Origin: Escherichia phage Henu4_2
DNA: 50,260 bases
Sequence record: PQ159479
Reading direction: 5' to 3' (one strand)
Shown here: positions 3,610-47,640 of the stretch, one piece after another
Position numbering within the stretch: position 1 is the first letter of the stretch
Layout: every line of letters begins with the position of its first letter
Notes under the pieces: generated by a model
What the model was told of the DNA's origin: nothing
Seen by the model: only the letters and a program-made list of their open reading frames with translations
Database searches by the model: none
Made by a program: the position numbers and the translations under genes

Positions 3610-3653
3610 ATAGCACTTTTTGCTAAAACTTGCTAAGGCACATTTGATAAAGT
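3609..3653 (+). promoter_or_regulatory. conserved early element copy 5 (8-bp stem AAGGCACA/TGTGCCTT, TAAAGT)
   Basis: AATAGCACTTTTTGCTAAAA; TGaTAAAGT 22 nt after TTGCTA. Confidence 0.5.
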
Positions 3654-3687
3654 GTGCCTTGTCGAGACAAGCAAAGGAGAATGACAA

Positions 3688-14600: not shown

Positions 14601-14649
14601 TGTTCTAACACAAAAAACACTTGAACGTTTAACAAAAAATGCTATATTA

Positions 14650-19068: not shown

Positions 19069-21978
19069 ATGGCTGAACAATTTGCAGGTTTAACACTTGG
19101 CGTGAACGTCGAGCAGTTAAACAAAGCTGTTAAGTCGTTACAGGACTTTAAAAAAGCCAACGACGAAGCAAAGAAAGGCGTTGAGAGCTTTGTTAACGAG
19201 GAAGAAGTTGCAAAGCAAAAGGCTAAACAGTTAGCTGATGAATTGGCGAAACAGAGCCGTGAATTTAAACGCATTCAGGACACTGTTGATCCGACAGCGG
19301 CGAAAATGCGCAAGCTATCTCAGGCCGCAAGTGATCTTGATAAGCTATGGCAAAAGGGCATTGTTCCCGATGAAACGTTTTTCCAGTTGGGGAGTATGCT
19401 GGAAACTCAGATCAGTAAGCTGGAGCGTAATAAAAAGGCGTTAACGGAAGAAGGCCGCGCAGCACTTGAGGAATCAAAAGCCAAAGAGAAAGCAGCATTA
19501 GCCGGAAAAACTTTCCTTGCGGATCTGGAATCGCAAGCCGCCGCGCTTGGAAAAACAAAAGCCGAATTGCTGGAAATGAAAGCGGCGCAACTTGGCGTAA
19601 GTGCTCAGGCCGCGCCATTCATTGCACAGCTTAAAGCGCAAGAAAAACAGATGAAGTTAACCGGAATTAGCGCGGGGCAATATAACCAGGCCATGCGAAT
19701 GCTTCCGGCTCAGATCACTGACGTTGTAACGTCGCTGGCTTCCGGTATGCCTGTTTGGTTGGTTGCAATCCAGCAGGGTGGACAGATTAAGGATTCTTTC
19801 GGCGGCGTTGGCAATACGTTTAAAGTGCTGTTGTCGTTTCTGAATCCGGTAAACGTTGGCCTTGCCGCATTAGCCGTTTCAATGGGTGCTCTTGTTAAGG
19901 CTGGTTATGATGCGTATAAGTCGCAACGTGACTTGCAAGAGGCGTTGGTGCTGACTGGTGGCTATGCTGGCACAAGCGGAGCACAGTTCGATAAGCTGGC
20001 GCAGGACATTAATAACAGCACTGATGCGACGATAGGAAACATCCGATCCATCGCAACAGAGCTTGCAAAATCAGGCAAATTCACGATTGATCAGATTAAA
20101 TCGATCACAAAGACTACCGCTCAGTGGTCAACGGTAACGGGTGAATCAAGCGACAAGATAACCGATTACTTTAATAAGATTGCTGGCGATCCGGTTAAAG
20201 GTCTTGCAGAGCTAAACGAGCAATTCAATTTTTTAAGCGAAGGGCAGTTAACTTATATTGCAGACCTGGAAAAAACAAAAGGCAAAACGGAAGCAGTAAC
20301 GGCGGCGACAAAGTTATTTGCTGATGTTATGGATCAGAGATTAGCTAAATTGGCAGACTCCGCAACGCCATTAGAAAAGATGTGGACGAACATTAAAAAA
20401 TGGGCGTCAGATGCATGGGGTTGGGTTGGGGATCACACGCTTGCGGCGCTTAACCTGATTATTGACGTTGTAGCCGGAACCGTTGAGCAAGTTCGCTATT
20501 TGCTTAATCAGGGTGATATTCTCATTGGTGAATTTATTGTATCGGCAACCAAAACGATGCAAAAAATCCCAGGGCTTGATAATGTTGGCGATTCTGTTAT
20601 TTCGCAGCAACAGAAGATTATCAATAACGCTAAGGAGAACAACAAGGAGCTATTAAAATCAATTGCAGAACGTAACGAGCGAGTCAAAAAAGGCGAGCAT
20701 GGTTACATTGACATGATGAAAAATCGTGCGGCGGTTGAACAGCAATATGCGACAAAAACAAAAGAGAATATCAGGAAGGAAGCCGAGGAATTAGCCAAAC
20801 GCGATAAAAAGCAAAAGGCTGAAAAAGTTAAGGTATCGGCTGGCGATAAGCTGGAAGAACAATATCAGCGTGATATCCTGGCGTTAGAAACTCAATTAAG
20901 AGTTTTGAAAGAGCACAAGACGATCACAGATACCATAAGCCAGCAACGTAAATCTTTATGGGCTGAACAAGCTAAAATTCAGATTTTGCAAGAAGCCTCA
21001 ACAAAACGGCAACTTACTGATGAAGAAAAAAGCATTTTAGCCAACAAAGATAAGATCCTAGCGATGGCTGAACAAAAAGCTATTTTAGGAGATCAGATTG
21101 TTGCACAAACGCGCCTTAATCAGTTGCAAGATAGCTCAATCAAGTTTATCCAGCAGCAGAAAGCAGCAACAGAAGCACTAGCCAAAACCAGAGGGTTAAG
21201 TGAACGTGAAGCAGCAAGAGCGGCGGAACGTGCAAAGGTTGAGGCTGATTATCTTGCCAAAGGAGGTAAGGAAGGAGATCCGCAACTCACCGCAATGATG
21301 GATGCATTAGACAATCGCTATAAAGAGGAAGATGCTAAACGTGCTGATTGGTTGGCTGGCTCTAAAAATGCCTTTGCGGAGTACGGCGAGGAAGCAATGA
21401 ACATGTATGATAATATCGGCAACATTGCGAGCCAGGCGCTAAACGGCCTATCGCAACAAATGGCTGATTTTTTGACTACTGGACAAGCAAACTTCAAAGA
21501 CTTTGCAAAATCGATCATTAGCCTTATTGTTCAGATGATCACAAAGATGGTTATCTTCAATAGCATTTCCGGCATGATGGGCGGCTCAACCTGGACGCTT
21601 GGAAGCCTTTTAAGCGGTGCTGGTTTTGCTGGCGGCGGTTATACTGGCGACGGTGGCAAATATGATCCGGCTGGCGTTGTTCATAAGGGTGAGTTTGTTT
21701 TCACAAAAGAGGCAACGCAAAGAATCGGAGCTAAAAACCTGTATCGCATGATGCGAGGTTATGCAAACGGCGGTCAAGTAGGAAGCGTGACAACTGGCGG
21801 CGCTGGCATCAATCGCGGTGCATCGCAATTTGCATTTGGTGATATCAACGTTAACATTGACAACGGTCAAGATCCAAAAGGGATGGAAACTGGTATCAAG
21901 ATGATTTTCACTGAAATGATTCAACGGTCATGCTCGCAAGGTGGCGAGGTTTATAATTTTGTTCATGGGAGGGCTTAA
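19069..21978 (+). CDS. tail tape measure protein
   Basis: about 970 aa, long coiled-coil regions, Gly-rich C-terminal region; position before lambda M/L/K/I/J homologs. Confidence 0.85.
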   Translation: MAEQFAGLTLGVNVEQLNKAVKSLQDFKKANDEAKKGVESFVNEEEVAKQKAKQLADELAKQSREFKRIQDTVDPTAAKMRKLSQAASDLDKLWQKGIVPDETFFQLGSMLETQISKLERNKKALTEEGRAALEESKAKEKAALAGKTFLADLESQAAALGKTKAELLEMKAAQLGVSAQAAPFIAQLKAQEKQMKLTGISAGQYNQAMRMLPAQITDVVTSLASGMPVWLVAIQQGGQIKDSFGGVGNTFKVLLSFLNPVNVGLAALAVSMGALVKAGYDAYKSQRDLQEALVLTGGYAGTSGAQFDKLAQDINNSTDATIGNIRSIATELAKSGKFTIDQIKSITKTTAQWSTVTGESSDKITDYFNKIAGDPVKGLAELNEQFNFLSEGQLTYIADLEKTKGKTEAVTAATKLFADVMDQRLAKLADSATPLEKMWTNIKKWASDAWGWVGDHTLAALNLIIDVVAGTVEQVRYLLNQGDILIGEFIVSATKTMQKIPGLDNVGDSVISQQQKIINNAKENNKELLKSIAERNERVKKGEHGYIDMMKNRAAVEQQYATKTKENIRKEAEELAKRDKKQKAEKVKVSAGDKLEEQYQRDILALETQLRVLKEHKTITDTISQQRKSLWAEQAKIQILQEASTKRQLTDEEKSILANKDKILAMAEQKAILGDQIVAQTRLNQLQDSSIKFIQQQKAATEALAKTRGLSEREAARAAERAKVEADYLAKGGKEGDPQLTAMMDALDNRYKEEDAKRADWLAGSKNAFAEYGEEAMNMYDNIGNIASQALNGLSQQMADFLTTGQANFKDFAKSIISLIVQMITKMVIFNSISGMMGGSTWTLGSLLSGAGFAGGGYTGDGGKYDPAGVVHKGEFVFTKEATQRIGAKNLYRMMRGYANGGQVGSVTTGGAGINRGASQFAFGDINVNIDNGQDPKGMETGIKMIFTEMIQRSCSQGGEVYNFVHGRA

Positions 21979-24543: not shown

Positions 24544-27500
24544 ATGATCAAAAATATGATAACTGGCAGTAAGGGCGGTTCTTCAAAGCCTCATACACCT
24601 GTTGAAATGGAAGATAACCTAATTTCAATTAACAGGATCAGAATTCTTTTAGCCGTTTCTGATGGTGAAGTTGATCCAGACTTTTCATTGAAAGATTTAT
24701 ATTTTGATGACGTTCCGGTTATGAATCAGGATGGTTCACTAAACTTTCAGAATGTTAAAGCAGAATTCAGACCAGGGACGCAAACTCAGGATTATATTCA
24801 GGGGTTTACTGATACAGCCAGCGAAATTACAGTTGCTCGAGATCTGACAGCCGCAACACCTTATATTATTTCTGTTACCAACAAAAACCTTTCTGCGATC
24901 CGTATTAAAATTTTAATGCCTCGCGGGGTTACTCAGGAAGATAACGGAGATCTAACAGGTGTTCGCGTTGAATATGCTGTTGATATGGCTGTTGATGGTG
25001 CTGAATATAAAGAGGTTTTGCATGATGTAATTGAAGGTAAAACAATGAGCGGTTACGACAGAAGCCGCCGAATTGATTTACCTGTTTTCAATGATCGTGT
25101 TTTATTGCGCGTACGTCGCCTGACAGATAGCACGTCAGCAAGGGTGACGGATCTGATTAAAATGCAAAGCTATGCGGAAATTGTAGACGCTAAATTTCGT
25201 TACCCCCTGACTGGTTTAGTATATGTTGAGTTTGACAGCGAATTATTCCCTAATGCGTTGCCGAATATCAGCATTAAGAAAAAATGGAAAATCATTAATG
25301 TTCCATCAAATTATGATCCTATTTCACGCACTTACTCAGGGTCATGGGATGGAACCTGGAAAAAGGCATGGAGTAATAACCCTGCTTTTGTTCTGTATGA
25401 TTTGATTACCAATCAGCGTTACGGACTCGATCAAAGAGAGTTAGGCATAGCGCTTGATAAATGGAGCATTTACGAATGTGCGCAGTATTGCGATCAGATG
25501 GTTCCAGACGGTAAAGGCGGAACAGAGCCGCGTTATCTTTGCGATGTTGTGATCCAGAGCCAGGTAGAAGCGTATCAGCTTGTGCGTGATATTTGTTCAA
25601 TATTCCGTGGCATGAGCTTTTGGAATGGTGAGAGCCTTTCAATCGTGATCGATAAGCCTCGCGATGCGTCATACATCTTTACTAATGACAACGTGGTTAA
25701 CGGCGATTTCAGCTACACGTTTGCCAGCGAGAAAAGCATGTACACGCAATGCAACGTGACTTTCGACGACGAACAAAACATGTATCAACAGGATGTTGAG
25801 GGAGTTTTCGAAACGGAGGCGGCGTTACGATTTGGATATAACAGCACGTCAATTACTGCGATTGGATGCACACGACGCAGCGAAGCCAACCGCCGTGGAC
25901 GCTGGATTTTAAAAACTAACGTCAAGAGCACAACGGTAAACTTTGCTACAGGTCTGGAAGGTATGATCCCAACCGTAGGCGATGTGATTGTTGTATCGGA
26001 TAACTTCTGGTCAAGTGCTCTAACGCTGAATCTATCAGGTCGCGTGATGGAGGTTAGCGGGTTGCAGGTGTTCACGCCGTTTAAGGTTGACGCAAGAGCA
26101 GGTGATCGCATTCTGGTAAATAAGCCAGATGGTAAGCCAGTTGGTCGAACCATTGCGCGTGTAAGTGATGACGGTAAAACGCTAACGCTAAACACGACAT
26201 TTGGCTTTGACGTTCAGCCGGATACCATTTTTGCAATTGAGCGAACGGATATTGCACAGCAACGATATGTTGTAACCGGAATCACTAAGGGTGACGGTGA
26301 TGAAGAATTTACCTACAACATAACGGCTGTTGAATACGATCCTAACAAATACGATGAAATTGATTATGGCGTAAACATTGATGACCGTCCGACTTCAATC
26401 GTGCAGCCTGACATTTTGCCAGCACCGCAAAACGTCAAGATCGAATCTTATTCGCGAGTTGTTCAGGGTGCGAGCGTGGAAACAATGCACGTTTCATGGG
26501 ATAAGGTTGAATATGCAAGCCTTTATGAAATGCAGTGGAGAAAAGACAATGGCAACTGGAACAACACGCCGCGCACAGCCAACAAGGAAACGGAAGTTGA
26601 AGGAATTTACGCCGGAAACTATCACGTAAGGGTTAGATCTGTTGCGGCGAATGGTTCAGCGTCTGGATGGTCAGCCATTGTAAGCGCCGGACTAACTGGC
26701 AAGGTTGGCGAACCGGAAAGGCCAATTAACCTTACTGCGTCTGACAATGAAGTTTTCGGAATTCGCGTAAAATGGGGTATGCCAGAAGGAAGCGGAGACA
26801 CTGCATATATTGAGTTGCATCAAGCGCCGAACGGTGCTGATGGTCATCCTATCGTTGATGAAGCAACGCTCTTAACGCTGATACCGTTCCCGCAATATGA
26901 GTATTGGCATTCAATACTGCCAGCGGGTCATGTTGTCTGGTACAAGGCAAGAGCAGTTGACAAAATCGGTAACGTTTCTGATTGGACTGATTTTGTGCGC
27001 GGCATGGCTTCCGACGATACAAGCATTATCACGGATCATATTAAGGTCGATATTGAAAATTCTGATGGCTATAAGTGGTTGCAGGAAAACGCGATAAAGG
27101 CAAATGATAAGATCCACAGCACAGCGGAATCAGTGATTGAAAACGCATTAGCGAATGATAAAGATGTTCGACGTATGCGAGTTGAAAACGGCAAGCGCAA
27201 AGCGGAGTTCTTGCAATCGCTGAAACTCATTGCAGACGAAACAGAAGCAAGGGTAACGCAGGTCACTCAAATGAGTGCGCAATTTGACGAGAAATTAACG
27301 GCTCAAAATAGCGAATTGAGAGAGGTAATTGCTAACAGCACTGAAACCATTAGCCAAAGGATTGATCAGCTTACAGCTACGTTTGAGAGCGAAATTGATG
27401 GTGTTAAGCAGGATATCAAAGCACAGATAACTGATGTTAACCAGGCAATCACCAATGAAGCGGAAGCGCGAGCGTCAGCGGATAGGGCGTTATCAACTCA

Positions 27501-31717: not shown

Positions 31718-34009
31718 TTAAGCACTTCCGTTAAGCATTGATTTTACAATGTTTTTCAGTTCGTCTAACTCATTGCGTAATGTGTTAATTTCCTCCTGTT
31801 GCCTTGCAATTGTTTCATTTTGCTTATCAGAATCATCAATCATTTCATTGATTGCGTTAACCAAAAGAGCGGTAACGCCGTTATAGTTAACACCTAAAAT
31901 CTCACTATCATCAGATACTTTATAAACAGATTCCGGTAAAACCGTTTGCACATCTTGAGCTATTACACCAGCTTCCTCAGAGTAGAAAGAATATTCATCC
32001 TCAATTAGATTGTTTCTCTTGAAGTAAGTGTAACCTTTAATTGATTTAACTTTCTCCTTTGCTGTTTTAATTTCTTTTAATTGAGCCTTTAGGCGAATAT
32101 CGGATGTGCTAATCCAACTAGCGGCTGTTGCATTACCATTGGAAGCAAATCCAAACTCACCACCACCAACCAGAATCCTTTGAAAAGGAGATCCATCTTC
32201 ATAAATAACAATGTCAGAAGCGCAAGCATGTTGATCACCCCACCTTGTAACTTTCCATATGTTAGCAGCAGCGCCCCTTGTGTTTAGTTCAACCATTAAA
32301 CCACAGGCTCTATTCCTCCAATCAACATGAGCGCCAGCACCAACTACGCCAGATATAAATGATGAAGCATCACCATTCCTTACTCCTTGAACATAAGCAA
32401 ACCTACCAGATTCCACAACCCAAGAATTTAAAGTTCTATATAACGCAACTTCTGATGGTGTCCATGCAAAAATGTTTTGACCATTAGAAACAGCTTGAAT
32501 TACACCGTCGCTACTCCATCTCAATCCAGTGTCAGGATCACCAATCGTGATCGAGTAATCACCAAACGTTGATACTACATCGGGAGGCAGTAACATCAAT
32601 CGATTATCAGATCTTGCTATCCTGTACCATCCACCCCAAGAGCCAGCATTGCAAATTACTCCCCATTTATTACCGTTCATTGCTGTTGCAACAATATTAC
32701 CGTACTCAACATGACCACTTGCATTTCTACCGTGTACATGTAACTCAAACATCCACCATCCAGAGGCTTCAGGCGGTAAGTATGTTGCAAGATCACCGCA
32801 AGAGTAATAACCGCTTTCTGCGTATGTTGACATAAACCCAAGAACGTTTGAATTATTAGGGATGCCAATTGCTTGACCGCCAACAGGAGTATTCAAGTTC
32901 TTTCTTGCTCCAACATCACTTGTTGCACCAGTTCCGCCCTGTTGAATTCCAAGAGGAATCCAGCCACCTCCAGCATCAGTCCAAACACCCCAGCCATTAT
33001 CATTATTTATAGTGATTCTAAGTGGAGAATTGCCTGGCGCATACATCATAGTTTCAGTTGCTGATTGCCTGAAACGCTCAATCCCAAAGTTTATCTTTGC
33101 ACCTTCTACGTTTTCAGCACCAGTACCGCCAGCACCAATAGAAAGCGCAGATGTGCTGTTATTTTCATTACGCGCAACGCGCCATTCCCCATTGTTAGCG
33201 ATCCGTAATTCATAAGTCCATGCAGGATTACGAAAAGAATTATAAGCGCCAGCATATTGATCTTTTACAGAATTAACAGCCTCAACTTTTAGCGCCTCCC
33301 TTGCAAGGTCTTTGTTTGCAAGATCATTAAGGTTTTGATCCTTATGCAGAAGATTTTCAGGCTGTACCTGTTGCGCCCATTGGCGAGCTTCATCACGCGC
33401 GTCTAACGCTTCATTTTTAATTCCGGTTATCTCAGTAACGGCAGAATCTTTAATCTGTTGCGTTTGGTTTTTTATTGCGTCCGTGTCGGCCTTAATCTGA
33501 TTGGTTTCAGAAACAGCGGCATTTTTAATCTGTTGAGTTTCAGAAACGGCGGAATCCTTAATTGTTTGCGTGTCGCTTTTTAATTGTTCTGTCGCGGCTC
33601 GGTCTGCATCAGTTTTTTGAGCGGAAGCCTCAGCGCGAGCAACAAGATCCTGTAATGTTTTTAAATCAAAGTTTTTGAAAAATTCAAGCGCTTCCTCAAT
33701 AACAGTTTCTTTACTTTGGTAATAGCGCAGAGTTTCCGCAACATCTTGCGCCATTCCATCTACCGTTAAAGAGTCATTCAACAGGATCACATAATTTCCG
33801 TTTTCTACTGGCTCGCCGTCAGTCTGGATCGCTTTCATTTCCGTGTCGCTTACAATATCGCTAATCACAGCCAATTTAAGAGGCGATGTGAGAAATACGA
33901 TTGTTGCGCCAGTGCGGATAAGAGAAAGAGGCTCACGCCATTTTGTGCCAGTACCAGTAATAACGCCTTGCGCGTCCATTGCAGCCGTACCAGTGCGATA
34001 TAAAGCCAT
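31718..34009 (-). CDS. tail fibre with C-terminal intramolecular chaperone (peptidase S74) domain
   Basis: C-terminus TSDIRLK...GYTYF...GVIAQDVQTVLPESV typical of S74 autoproteolytic chaperone; Gly/Trp-rich beta region; coiled-coil repeats. Confidence 0.85.
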   Translation of the reverse strand: MALYRTGTAAMDAQGVITGTGTKWREPLSLIRTGATIVFLTSPLKLAVISDIVSDTEMKAIQTDGEPVENGNYVILLNDSLTVDGMAQDVAETLRYYQSKETVIEEALEFFKNFDLKTLQDLVARAEASAQKTDADRAATEQLKSDTQTIKDSAVSETQQIKNAAVSETNQIKADTDAIKNQTQQIKDSAVTEITGIKNEALDARDEARQWAQQVQPENLLHKDQNLNDLANKDLAREALKVEAVNSVKDQYAGAYNSFRNPAWTYELRIANNGEWRVARNENNSTSALSIGAGGTGAENVEGAKINFGIERFRQSATETMMYAPGNSPLRITINNDNGWGVWTDAGGGWIPLGIQQGGTGATSDVGARKNLNTPVGGQAIGIPNNSNVLGFMSTYAESGYYSCGDLATYLPPEASGWWMFELHVHGRNASGHVEYGNIVATAMNGNKWGVICNAGSWGGWYRIARSDNRLMLLPPDVVSTFGDYSITIGDPDTGLRWSSDGVIQAVSNGQNIFAWTPSEVALYRTLNSWVVESGRFAYVQGVRNGDASSFISGVVGAGAHVDWRNRACGLMVELNTRGAAANIWKVTRWGDQHACASDIVIYEDGSPFQRILVGGGEFGFASNGNATAASWISTSDIRLKAQLKEIKTAKEKVKSIKGYTYFKRNNLIEDEYSFYSEEAGVIAQDVQTVLPESVYKVSDDSEILGVNYNGVTALLVNAINEMIDDSDKQNETIARQQEEINTLRNELDELKNIVKSMLNGSA
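33410..33575 (-). repeat. in-frame ~33-bp tandem repeats inside the tail fibre gene
   Basis: repeated TTTCAGAAACRGCGGMATYYTTAATYKKTTG units encoding SAVSETxQIKN-like 11-aa repeats. Confidence 0.5.
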
Positions 34010-35091: not shown

Positions 35092-35149
35092 TTCTCAATC
35101 TCCAAATAAAAAACCTGGCACGATGATAAACCATGCCAGGCCGGAATTT

Positions 35150-35758
35150 TTAGCAATCAGTGCTATCGACGGAAATCACAACGCGTTTCTTCTGATTGGC
35201 TTCCTTTGCTTTGCGCCGTTCTTCTTTCTCCTTGTCGCGTTCAGCCTTGCGCCGCGCTTTCTCCTTCTCGCGTTCTTCTGGAGTCATAGACCGTAACGGA
35301 TCGTAAGGCCGGACAAATCCCCTTGCTTCCGCTTCCTCTTTGGTTACAAATCGCATCAGCTTTCTGTTGCTGCAACGATTCTCTAATGGTTTTCCGTTAT
35401 TATCAAACTTGATATCTGGACGGCAATATGAAGCGCGAAAACCGTTAAAACCTTTGCGGCGGTAATCTTTCTGGATCAGTTCAGCGCCTTTAGTTGAAAT
35501 CATGCCGCGCTCTTTCCATCCCCATACTGTTTTAAGGTTAACGCCAATTTCACGCGCCAGGGCAGCGCAACCGCCGTAAGCGTTGACAACTTCATCAAGA
35601 CGCGCTTTTAATCCGGCTCTTACTTCTTCCTTTAATACAAGATAACCGCTAACAGGTGCGCGACGTTTGCGATCTTTACCACGTCTTACGCCGTTGTTAC
35701 CATTGATTGTGCGTTTGTCGATTTCGCCAGTTGAGGCGGCAATTTTGATTTCGCTCAT
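35150..35758 (-). CDS. HTH DNA-binding protein with polybasic C-terminal tail (putative regulator)
   Basis: HTH-like CAALAREIGVNLKTVWGWKERG; C-terminal KR/E-rich; start at ATG 35758 with RBS AGGTGA. Confidence 0.55.
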   Translation of the reverse strand: MSEIKIAASTGEIDKRTINGNNGVRRGKDRKRRAPVSGYLVLKEEVRAGLKARLDEVVNAYGGCAALAREIGVNLKTVWGWKERGMISTKGAELIQKDYRRKGFNGFRASYCRPDIKFDNNGKPLENRCSNRKLMRFVTKEEAEARGFVRPYDPLRSMTPEEREKEKARRKAERDKEKEERRKAKEANQKKRVVISVDSTDC

Positions 35759-35768
35759 ATTTTCACCT

Positions 35769-35811
35769 ATAGCACTTTTTGCTAAAAAACTTGATTGAGT
35801 TTGTGTATGAT
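35769..35811 (+). promoter_or_regulatory. conserved early element copy 9 upstream of helicase operon
   Basis: ATAGCACTTTTTGCTAAAA then TATGAT. Confidence 0.5.
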
Positions 35812-35835
35812 ATGCCGCAAATGGCATTTAGTCAA
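35807..35835 (-). promoter_or_regulatory. sigma70 promoter for HTH gene (TTGACT-17-TATCAT), -10 overlapping the plus-strand -10
   Basis: minus-strand TTGACT (35835-35830), 17-nt spacer, TATCAT (35812-35807). Confidence 0.6.
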
Positions 35836-35846
35836 AAGGATAAAAA

Positions 35847-37820
35847 ATGATTCCTAACATTGAAAAGCAGATTGCAGATCTTGGAGAGGAAAGGATTAAG
35901 GCAATACAGAAGCGTTTCACGGTTGGTGAGATTGTCCCGTATGAATACCAATGCGTTGCTTACGCTGAAATTGCAAAGCGCTTGAGTAAGTATGTTGATC
36001 CGTTTTTCGTAAAAGCGGCGGTATCGGCAGGTAAAACAATCATCTTTGCTATGGTTGCGGCTCAGTGCCGTAAAATGGGGTTGAAAGCGTTATTTCTGGC
36101 GCGTCAATCTGAAATTGTGGATCAGGATTCAAAAGAGATTAGCGCCTTTGGTGTTCCGAATTCCGTTTATTGCGCTGGCCTGAATACCAAAAGCGCTTAT
36201 TTCCCGATTGTTGTCGGATCGGAAGGCACTGTAATTGGTGGATTGAATAAAGCGTTGGGTGATTACGTCCCACAGGTTTTAGGTATAGATGAATGCCATC
36301 AAGTAAACTGGAATGACATTGTGGAAGCCGAGGAAAACGGCGAAAGCATAGAGCAAATGATGACTCCGAAAGGTGAACCAGTTGAAGGGCATCCGTTGCT
36401 GATTGGTTCAGGCCGCGCACAATACACCATTATCATTGCAGAAATGCGCCGCCGTTGCCTTGAGACTTACGGTCATCAGTTGCGCATATTTGGAATGACA
36501 GGATCGGAATATCGCGGAATTGAGCCGATACTTGTCGAAGATAAAAGAATTCCTGGGTTTTGGCGTGAGCAGATCACAAACATTGATACTGATTACTTGG
36601 TTAAATTTGGTTCAGTTGTTCCCACTTATTTTGGCAATGTTGGTGATTTGGGTTATGACTTATCAGAATTTACGCCAGTACATGAATTTGGCGTTGCTGA
36701 TTATGACCAGAAGCAATTAAAGGCAATGAGTGACAAGATTCACAAATCAGGAACCATGACGCAGAAAATAATGCAGATGGTTCATGAGGTGATGAAAAAC
36801 CGCTTGTGCGCTCTTGTTACTTGCGCTGACGAAAGGCACTGCAAAGAGGCGGCGGCGGCGCTTCCTCCTGGCACGAAATATCACATTATCACCGGAAAAA
36901 CTGGAGAGAAACAGCGGCGCTTATGGCTTGAGGATGCCTATGAAGGGCGCGTGAAATACATATTCCAGGTTCAAGCGCTAACAACTGGAGTGAACGTTCC
37001 GCCGTGGGATACTTCTGTTATTTTGCGTAAGATCGGAAGCCTGACGCTATTAACTCAGCTTTTGGGGCGCGGTATGCGTCAATTAAAAACTTACCATAAA
37101 GAAGTATTGGGAATGCACAAAACGGATCACCTTGTTTTGGATTTTTCCGGCACGATGTTTGAAATGGGTAATTTGTATTTCGATCCGATGTTAGAGCAAG
37201 CGCAATTCCAGTTGCGTAAATCACAGGATAAAGATCCGAAATATTGCCCGATTTGCGGCACAGAAAATTCATTCTATGCTCGCCGTTGCATTAATGAAGA
37301 TGAAAACGGAAATCGTTGTGAGCACTTTTGGACTTTTCAAACGTGTGAGGATCAGATTGATGACCGCACAAAGAAAATAACGGTAAAAGGTTGTGGTGCT
37401 AAAAATGACGTTGCGGCGCGTGTATGCCGTTGCTGTAATGTTCAGTTACGCGATCCAAATGATAACTTATCCGGCAAGATGTACCGTAAAAACGATTGGT
37501 GCGACGTGTTAGATTTTAATGTGACGCTGACAAAAAACCAGGCTGGGGTAATATTCTGCTACACGTTGCGTGATAGTGGCGGCGTAGAATTCAGGGCATA
37601 CGAAAAATATTTCCCTGAATCAGAACACAAGATATGTAAAACGCTTTGGACAAAGGCGGTTAGAACACACGTTATAGATCGCCAGGCCGCAAACTTTATG
37701 ATCACTTGCAGAAATGCAATTAAGATCATGAGTTATGCTGGGCAAATATTGCCACCAAAACGTGTTACCCATCGCAAGAACACAAAGAAAGAAGATTTGA
37801 TCGCACAGAAGGAGTTTTAA
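35847..37820 (+). CDS. superfamily II DEAH-type helicase with C-terminal zinc-ribbon region
   Basis: Walker A AAVSAGKT, motif II GIDECHQ; C-terminal CPICGT...C..C cluster. Confidence 0.85.
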   Translation: MIPNIEKQIADLGEERIKAIQKRFTVGEIVPYEYQCVAYAEIAKRLSKYVDPFFVKAAVSAGKTIIFAMVAAQCRKMGLKALFLARQSEIVDQDSKEISAFGVPNSVYCAGLNTKSAYFPIVVGSEGTVIGGLNKALGDYVPQVLGIDECHQVNWNDIVEAEENGESIEQMMTPKGEPVEGHPLLIGSGRAQYTIIIAEMRRRCLETYGHQLRIFGMTGSEYRGIEPILVEDKRIPGFWREQITNIDTDYLVKFGSVVPTYFGNVGDLGYDLSEFTPVHEFGVADYDQKQLKAMSDKIHKSGTMTQKIMQMVHEVMKNRLCALVTCADERHCKEAAAALPPGTKYHIITGKTGEKQRRLWLEDAYEGRVKYIFQVQALTTGVNVPPWDTSVILRKIGSLTLLTQLLGRGMRQLKTYHKEVLGMHKTDHLVLDFSGTMFEMGNLYFDPMLEQAQFQLRKSQDKDPKYCPICGTENSFYARRCINEDENGNRCEHFWTFQTCEDQIDDRTKKITVKGCGAKNDVAARVCRCCNVQLRDPNDNLSGKMYRKNDWCDVLDFNVTLTKNQAGVIFCYTLRDSGGVEFRAYEKYFPESEHKICKTLWTKAVRTHVIDRQAANFMITCRNAIKIMSYAGQILPPKRVTHRKNTKKEDLIAQKEF

Positions 37821-38270: not shown

Positions 38271-38301
38271 GCACCCATCAGAACGAAACGGAGAATTAAC
38301 C

Positions 38302-39588: not shown

Positions 39589-39628
39589 CACTTTTTGTTA
39601 AAAATGCCCCGCTTATGTGGGGCATAAT
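39584..39628 (+). promoter_or_regulatory. conserved early element copy 11 (stem ATGCCCC/GGGGCAT, CATAAT)
   Basis: ATAGCACTTTTTGTTAAAA; CATAAT; TTCAACGAAACGAAACGAGGA leader. Confidence 0.5.
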
Positions 39629-39660
39629 CATTTCAACGAAACGAAACGAGGATTTGTAAA

Positions 39661-47609: not shown

Positions 47610-47640
47610 TTTTAAATTCTCCGGTTCGTTTCGATGAATG

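Follow-up and report, generated by a model that had tools for sequence, protein, structure and literature searches.

A putative bidirectional promoter with a shared -10 element and a marbox-like repeat between the helicase and regulator genes of a T1-like phage

Predicted divergent promoters in the helicase/regulator gap

The DNA analysed here is a stretch of 50,260 nucleotides from Escherichia phage Henu4_2 (record PQ159479), hereafter the window, and our subject is an 88-bp gap within it (35759-35846) from which two genes diverge. To the left lies a regulator gene of 202 amino acids (35150-35758, minus strand), a homologue of gene 57 of phage TLS that is called 'transcriptional regulator' in relatives. 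To the right lies the helicase gene helA (35847-37820, plus strand), which opens a rightward operon continuing with a VRR-NUC nuclease and a Dam methylase. Primase is the next minus-strand gene downstream of the regulator. Ribosome-binding sites can be read at both edges of the gap: AGGTGA at 35763-35768 (minus strand) for the regulator, where phage Stevie is annotated with such a site at the same place, and AAAGGA at 35835-35840 (plus strand) for the helicase, of which AAAGG is kept across lineages. Over 35100-36100 the DNA shares 99.8% identity with Salmonella phage YSP2 and 97% with Escherichia phage TLS, and on this account the window is evidently a near-complete Tlsvirus genome (Drexlerviridae, T1-like).

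At the center of the gap is the heptamer TATGATA (35806-35812), which reads as a -10 hexamer on both strands. The rightward, helicase-directed hexamer is TATGAT at 35806-35811 (plus strand), with a predicted start near 35818, and takes the form TAT(T/G)AT across the family. The leftward, regulator-directed promoter, known as P57, has its -10 TATCAT at 35807-35812 (minus strand), a predicted start near 35800 and, across a 17-bp spacer, the -35 element TTGACT at 35830-35835 (minus strand), within the DNA encoding the helicase 5′ leader. The two hexamers have 35807-35811 in common, so that 35807 serves as -11A on the plus strand and -7T on the minus strand, and 35811 as -7T on the plus strand and -11A on the minus strand. 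The predicted starts, placed from hexamer positions only, are 18 bp apart.

P57 scores 10/12 in a consensus scan and had already been predicted in silico in phage TLS (PMC11447400, Table S1), where it is among only three predicted intergenic sigma-70 promoters. Such a score proves little alone, since matches to the sigma-70 consensus are not enriched genome-wide (92 against about 107 expected from shuffles). The leftward arm does combine hexamers near consensus with a spacer of 16-18 bp and is retained in relatives, and because its near-consensus -35 stands at 17 bp, host sigma-70 polymerase should be able to use it unaided. The 5′ leader of the regulator has no significant structure (fold z = -1.2). 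A longer regulator open reading frame of 225 amino acids, starting from an ATG at 35827, was rejected, as it begins upstream of the predicted start, and lacks a ribosome-binding site, and as the gene is annotated in relatives from the equivalent of 35758.

The rightward arm is built differently. Its upstream element is a 19-bp direct repeat, ATAGCACTTTTTGCTAAAA, at 35769-35787 (plus strand; DR11 in TLS), which ends 18 nt before the -10. In the window this 19-mer occurs 17 times at up to three mismatches, where 0.09 copies are expected, and 19 times at up to four. Copies on the plus strand lie at 1192, 1602, 2229, 3610, 4743, 6179, 29837, 35769, 38227 and 39585, and those on the minus strand at 14645, 35166, 44659, 45339, 46753, 47685, 48589, 49090 and 49600; all are oriented toward the following gene. 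An nAnnnT hexamer (CATAAT, TATAGT, TAAAGT, TATGAT and others) stands 18-19 nt past the repeat in 18 of the 19 copies, seven of the 19 carry a TGn extended -10, and each cassette -10 is followed by a short leader, a ribosome-binding site and a start codon. Because a -10-like hexamer at fixed distance is followed in this way, the repeats appear to be promoter cassettes of early and replication genes, located at both genome ends and around the replication module.

No promoter passes the plus-strand consensus scan at the rightward arm. Two candidates for a canonical -35, TTGATT at 9 bp and TTGCTA at 21 bp from the -10, were rejected as unusable, and the hexamers 16-18 bp from the -10 are all A-rich (AAAAAA, TAAAAA and CTAAAA). 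A sigma-54 reading of the repeat was likewise rejected, given an AG-GC spacing of 8 instead of 10 and a sigma-70-type -10 at fixed distance. When the best antisense promoter overlapping the -10 was scored for all 19 cassettes, the helicase/regulator locus reached 10/12 and the other 18 reached 3-8/12.

An earlier note on this DNA had described a minus-strand promoter TTGACT-17-TATCAT for a helix-turn-helix gene, a plus-strand early element with a TATGAT hexamer, and two -10 elements standing face-to-face on common base pairs (TATGATA at 35806-35812). The first and last are read directly in the DNA, the early element proves real as one of the family of repeats, and the helix-turn-helix identity of the left-hand product is supported by the Cro-like fold described below.

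The 2024 reannotation of TLS lists 18 intergenic repeats of 21 bases (DR1-18), with DR11 at the helicase/regulator position, and its authors leave repeat function as an open question, offering stoperators, enhancer sites or UP elements as guesses (PMC11447400). DR11 and P57 are the same elements as those at 35769-35787 and 35807-35835 here. That paper does not connect the two, and it mentions neither the fixed-distance -10, nor the shared -10, nor a likeness to the marbox (PMC11447400).

Further features accompany the cassettes. The structural-gene block at about 7000-29000 is almost free of repeats. Scanning the 42 nt that follow each repeat (for example 3629-3670, 39604-39645 and, on the minus strand, 35105-35147) revealed strong inverted repeats (fold z < -2) in the spacer or around the -10 in 14 of the 19 cassettes; outside the helicase/regulator locus, 13 of the 18 have strong repeats of this kind. 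Their arms vary in sequence between copies, so that structure and not sequence seems to be retained. They cannot be part of the RNA that their own promoter makes; they may terminate the upstream unit or form its 3′ hairpins, or may be structures at the DNA level. Many cassettes are also followed, just before the ribosome-binding site, by a leader approximating CATCGAAACGAAAC(G)GAG, as at 1243-1260, 38276-38295, 39633-39653 and 47615-47640 (minus strand), and a leader of this type is found in the helicase leader of several other genera.

Conservation of both promoter arms

The comparison set comprised 85 loci (80 of them collected further), representing 54 distinct sequences and 15 clusters that are less than 75% identical in their variable parts. 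A helicase gene diverging across a gap of about 90 bp from a regulator gene, with primase following the regulator, is found in Tunavirus, Webervirus, Rogunavirus, Sauletekiovirus and a Vibrio phage. In all 85 loci the repeat stands beside the regulator ribosome-binding site and is followed, after 18-20 nt, by a heptamer of the TAT(T/G)ATA type. For most genera this heptamer is TATTATA, which is a perfect TATAAT on the regulator strand, and TATTAT is used by none of the other repeat cassettes in the window. Of the 15 divergent clusters, 14 have A as the seventh base, compared with 6 of the 18 other window cassettes.

The opposite strand is similarly preserved. Promoters on the regulator strand score 9-11/12 in the 54 distinct sequences, and a -35-like hexamer at 16-18 bp is present on that strand in all 15 clusters. 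Its mean score over the clusters is 3.87/6, compared with 2.55 +/- 0.24 in shuffles, and none of 5000 shuffles reached the observed value. The spacers between the elements have freely diverged. Because the repeat, the heptamer and the opposite-strand -35 have been kept while these spacers diverged, both promoter arms look selected, and selection on the layout as a whole is clear. The only blocks of the gap conserved family-wide are the 19-bp repeat, the heptamer and the ribosome-binding sites, and any regulatory protein is therefore more likely to act at the repeat.

Likeness of the repeat to class II marboxes

The published marbox motif is gcannwwntgnnaaa (PMC12052159). The repeat matches this motif with zero mismatches at 35772-35786, its A site being GCAC (35772-35775) and its B site TAAA (35783-35786). 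Across the window the motif occurs 20 times where 2.2 matches are expected, and 18 of these 20 are the repeats. The variable positions of the repeat (8-10 and 14) coincide with positions that the motif leaves unspecified, and position 10 is always A or T. Compared with host elements, the repeat is identical at 15 of 20 positions to the Escherichia coli mar marbox taken from the genome, ATGCCACGTTTTGCTAAATC, and at 15-16 of 20 positions to the E. coli micF marbox, ACAGCACTGAATGTCAAAAC. Under strict criteria no box was found at the E. coli promoters of sodA, inaA and nfo.

Geometry agrees with sequence. In a class II marbox promoter the box is in forward orientation and overlaps the -35, with its center at about -41.5, an A site GCAC and a B site CAAA (YAAA). 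The promoter of fumC is said to have been placed in class II by Martin et al. in 1999. Counted from the G of GCAC to where the -10 begins, the distance is 34 bp at the helicase locus and one other cassette and 35 bp in the remaining 17 cassettes, compared with 35 bp at micF (using its -10 TAGAAT and the annotated MicF start) and 34 bp at fumC. The rightward arm thus matches the motif, carries it in forward orientation overlapping the -35, and has a weak or absent -35 of its own. As far as sequence and geometry can tell, the cassettes appear to have every testable feature of class II promoters of MarA, SoxS or Rob. They share with micF and fumC the GCAC and YAAA sites, the forward orientation, the 34-35 bp distance and the poor or absent -35. 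They differ in that the phage copies are closer to consensus and almost identical among themselves, and in that binding of a host activator is putative.

Searches of the phage for an encoded MarA or Rob homologue by tblastn and phmmer found none, and a factor acting on the repeat as a marbox would for this reason be a host protein. We infer that the candidates for binding the repeat are host Rob, MarA, SoxS or RamA as first choice and the phage regulator as second.

A possible parallel comes from the Pantoea myophage vB_PagM_AAM37, which belongs to another genus (Dibbivirus) and has the replication module in common. AAM37 contains at least eight cassettes that agree in repeat and in gap length (19 nt), among them repeats at 21473, 24351, 26308, 33463, 35217 and 35488. 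It also encodes a 136-amino-acid protein of the AraC/MarA family (25901-26311; Pfam HTH_18 at 1.8e-14, 29% identity to MarA), a gene type present in just 10 of 50,697 phage records. The joint presence of the cassettes and such a gene is a coincidence that would support the marbox reading.

The regulator protein

Residues ~40-105 of the regulator are predicted to form an all-helical, Cro-like helix-turn-helix domain, whose closest structures are Xfaso1 Cro, N15 Cro and the controller proteins of restriction-modification systems. This assignment draws on profile matches to the PDB entries for XPH1, P22 Cro and Xfaso1 Cro (E 0.003-0.006) and on an AlphaFold2 model (mean pLDDT 83) that Foldseek aligns to Xfaso1 Cro (3bd1) with probability 1.0 and TM 0.70. 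A match to Pfam YdaS (2.2e-5, 24.6 bits) falls under the curated cut-off of 30; several homologues have precomputed PF14549/PF15943 matches, and the protein matches PHROG 2856 at 9e-76. The gene occurs in 830 phage records, essentially all of them Drexlerviridae. Although disorder is predicted for the N-terminal 38 residues, they form a conserved basic arm, with invariant D14, K15, R16, N19, G20, N21, N22, G23, R26, D29 and R33 in residues 14-33; this motif may be a DNA-wrapping arm or a protein-binding peptide. The C-terminal extension is a lysine/glutamate-rich tail specific to Tlsvirus.

A model for the locus and its alternatives

We favor, with moderate confidence, a model in which the 88-bp gap is a single bidirectional promoter where an activator bound to the class II marbox-like repeat fires the rightward arm in competition with transcription of the regulator. 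Both transcription starts, the competition between polymerases and the identity of the protein on the repeat are what we infer from the elements described above. Polymerase would occupy the shared TATGATA in one orientation at a time, never both. Host polymerase alone would take the leftward arm and produce the Cro-like regulator, with the transcript ending at the hairpin at 35112-35142. At the marbox-like repeat, an activator of the MarA/SoxS/Rob type would replace the -35 contact and recruit polymerase rightward onto the same -10, turning on the helicase operon. Transcription of the regulator would then drop through polymerase competition, as has been demonstrated by experiment at E. coli acrA/acrR with SoxS. 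Feedback by the regulator is more speculative, and could take the form of competition with the activator at the repeats or of the regulator being the activator itself.

A wider claim is that the ~19 repeats are near-consensus class II marboxes through which virulent T1-family phages drive their early and replication genes by way of host MarA, SoxS, Rob or RamA, with the helicase/regulator node being a polymerase-competition switch set by these activators. We advance this only tentatively, as quite possible and still short of probable.

Several points weigh against the model and its extension. Unstressed cells contain little MarA or SoxS, and their Rob is for the most part inactive; a lytic phage able to grow well in plain broth would have to depend on weak basal activation. 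The repeat is stricter in its conservation than host marboxes, which could reflect a dedicated phage protein, and the same repeat is found in Vibrio phage Vc1. The AraC-like protein of AAM37 lacks the MarA helix-3 base contacts W42, Q45 and R46, and the helicase/regulator gap of AAM37 has neither a repeat nor a shared -10. We found no literature report tying rob, marA or soxS to the growth of T1-type phages, none linking marboxes to phage promoters, and no published mapped transcription starts or transcriptome data for Drexlerviridae phages. Finally, Warman et al. report that the basal activity of natural bidirectional promoters is often too low for competition (PMC12825309).

The best of the alternatives, possible though rather unlikely, is that the phage's own Cro-like regulator binds the 19-bp repeat. 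In one version a dimer of it, seated on TAGCA-N5-TGCTA near -42, would be the activator at every repeat-type promoter, in the manner of lambda cI at OR2 or Mu Mor, and in another it would be a late shut-off repressor or 'stoperator' protein. At this locus the site spans about +14 to +32 of the regulator transcript, so that a regulator bound there would also limit its own synthesis. The 5+5 dyad, with a center-to-center spacing of 10 bp, would suit such a dimer, and the repeat is the sole conserved block, hence the only conserved candidate target, in the region upstream of the regulator. Additionally, regulator and repeat are both near-universal and well conserved in the family, the place of P57 among just three canonical promoters of TLS would fit a first-expressed master regulator, and the helix-turn-helix resembles Cro and controller proteins of restriction-modification systems, which both activate and repress. 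On the other side, the dyad is imperfect in about half of the copies (TGTTA) and its conserved flanks are asymmetric. Conserved and variable positions are distributed as in the asymmetric marbox and not as in a palindrome. In AAM37 a homologue of the helix-turn-helix protein stands opposite the helicase across the gap that lacks any repeat. Conservation of the repeat upstream of the regulator is already explained by its promoter function. No covariation between regulator and repeat was found across genera including the Vibrio phage, a search that has no power because the repeat is invariant.

It could also be that only the rightward promoter matters, the leftward -10 being a by-product of the near-symmetry of -10 elements and the regulator being weakly transcribed or transcribed from elsewhere. 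Indeed, this symmetry is known to yield many weak or non-functional divergent starts (PMC10268837), and the leading TT of the -35 is partly owed to the A-rich run that precedes the helicase ribosome-binding site. Yet the preference of this locus for TATTATA, the excess of A at the seventh base and a -35 scoring well above shuffles all point to selection on the regulator strand, and the regulator gene needs a promoter within a gap of just ~90 bp. We regard this explanation as doubtful.

Slightly more doubtful again is a repeat that acts as a factor-independent, UP-like element read by the alpha subunit of polymerase, which would make all repeat promoters constitutive and leave no switch. The TLS authors raised the possibility (PMC11447400). 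The repeat is A/T-rich and located at about -50 to -32, and some copies have a TGn extended -10. Its invariant G/C positions (GCAC and TG) are not features of UP elements, however; its T- and A-tracts are shifted by ~8 bp from the UP consensus, and the perfect match to the marbox would be left unexplained.

The last alternative concerns an inverted repeat, ATGCC-N6-GGCAT, at 35812-35827 (ATGCC at 35812-35816, GGCAT at 35823-35827), to which the earlier note had drawn attention. It is present within the P57 spacer, but there is little to mark it as a meaningful element. A perfect 5-bp inverted repeat with a gap of 3-10 nt arises in 60% of shuffles of the 88-bp region; this one has a fold z of -0.7 and occurs once in the genome. 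Its left arm is ATGGT in Stevie and ATTCC in LL5, changes that are not compensatory since the right arm is intact in both, and no significant inverted repeat lies at this position in any of the 15 lineages. We rejected it both as an operator and as an RNA hairpin, because it is at chance level, unique and not conserved, and because its left arm is upstream of the predicted start; it is probably incidental. A lambda-style switch, in which the helix-turn-helix protein on this site sets both promoters, is accordingly very improbable: a repressor would be well placed on a site at about -6 to +10 of the rightward promoter, and AcrR represses both acrA/acrR arms from a similar one (PMC12825309), but the site is at chance level, broken without compensation and missing from lineages that conserve the protein, and the locus has no second regulator gene and no multiple operators.

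Comparison with known systems

The earlier note had called this a classic genetic-switch layout, unexpected in a phage without an integrase, and neither description is supported. A lambda-type switch has two antagonistic regulator genes that diverge and several related palindromic operators. In the phage a single regulator gene faces a helicase operon, a 5-bp repeat at chance level takes the place of a related operator set, and the family is described as virulent (PMC11447400). The likeness to PRM/PR at lambda OR consists of a divergent promoter pair beside a gene with a Cro fold. The lambda promoters are back-to-back with starts ~80 bp apart, unlike those of the phage, and the three related operators, two antagonistic regulators and temperate lifestyle of lambda have no counterpart at the phage locus.

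Other phages offer parallels for the use of an upstream activator in lytic-cycle control. In the A2b/A3 early-late switch of phi29 (p4) and at the Mor and C promoters of Mu, host polymerase is redirected through an activator site upstream of a promoter without a -35. In phi29, whose promoters have no shared -10, this goes together with the shutting off of a divergent early promoter. The proteins and sites of phi29 p4 and Mu Mor/C differ from those of the phage locus. Stoperators of the mycobacteriophage L5 type are asymmetric repressor sites that lie between genes, point along transcription and belong to a temperate phage with a cognate repressor. The orientation of the repeats and their intergenic position would fit such putative sites; however, a -10 at fixed distance from each site marks the repeat as a promoter element, and the phage is virulent.

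The shared -10 itself belongs to a known class. Bacterial bidirectional promoters are recognized by a pseudo-symmetric -10 where the -11A of each strand pairs with the -7T of the other, and 18 bp is the most frequent distance between their starts (PMC10268837). The arrangement seen here, with predicted starts at that distance, corresponds to their most common form (PMC10268837, PMC12825309). The reciprocal -11A/-7T pairing, the shared -10 and predicted starts 18 bp apart are all found at the helicase/regulator locus, as in the class of Warman et al. (2021) summarized in PMC10268837. In that summary most known cases show weak conservation and often yield a non-coding second RNA; the phage locus, in contrast, would drive two mRNAs, and its conservation extends over an entire phage family. 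The two polymerase orientations at such promoters are mutually exclusive, and in experiments a strongly activated arm represses its partner by competition (PMC12825309).

A close counterpart is E. coli PacrA/acrR (Warman et al., NAR 2026, PMC12825309), where a regulator gene and an operon likewise diverge from one pseudo-symmetric -10. SoxS activates acrAB through a marbox and thereby represses the divergent acrR by polymerase competition. This activation of the operon arm by SoxS or MarA, with the resulting fall in regulator transcription, is only predicted for the phage. The host locus encodes AcrR, a TetR-family auto-repressor with a known operator, whereas the phage has a putative marbox-like element in class II position and a predicted Cro-like regulator.

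Novelty and significance

Both elements of the locus have been published separately as in silico predictions, and the architecture is a known class. What appears to be new, judged by the searchable literature, is the shared -10, its family-wide conservation, the fixed-distance -10 of each repeat, and the proposed equivalence of the repeat to a marbox. T1-like phages (Drexlerviridae) commonly contaminate laboratories and industrial processes, and they are also candidates for phage therapy. Our analysis offers an account of the repeats as promoter upstream elements with a fixed-distance -10, names host activators of the MarA/SoxS/Rob type as candidate binders, and points to a single node where one -10 is common to a repeat promoter and the canonical promoter of the family's only recognizable transcription factor. 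If the marbox reading is correct, phage development would be wired to the stress state of the host. If host stress activators do drive phage early genes, exposure to antibiotics or bile would alter phage growth, with a bearing on combined phage and antibiotic treatment.

Neighboring features and records

Downstream of the regulator, the predicted terminator T57 (hairpin and T-run at 35112-35142, minus strand) closes the regulator transcript, and its loop holds the -10 TATCAT of the primase promoter. A second copy of the repeat, DR10 (35148-35166, minus strand), overlaps the regulator stop codon and is part of the same primase promoter. Terminator and promoter are thus nested over 35112-35166 (minus strand).

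Some database records for this region look mislabeled. GenBank KR296690 calls it 'integrase', while its RefSeq copy gives a transcriptional regulator; a record that is 97% identical in DNA is named a Streptococcus phage; and records named Campylobacter phage contain a regulator homologue (~54% protein identity). Elsewhere in the window, a 34-nt repeat is present three times at 33432-33573 (79-100% identical), inside the tail-fiber gene and on the strand opposite to its coding sequence, with two copies adjoining and the third 75 nt upstream.

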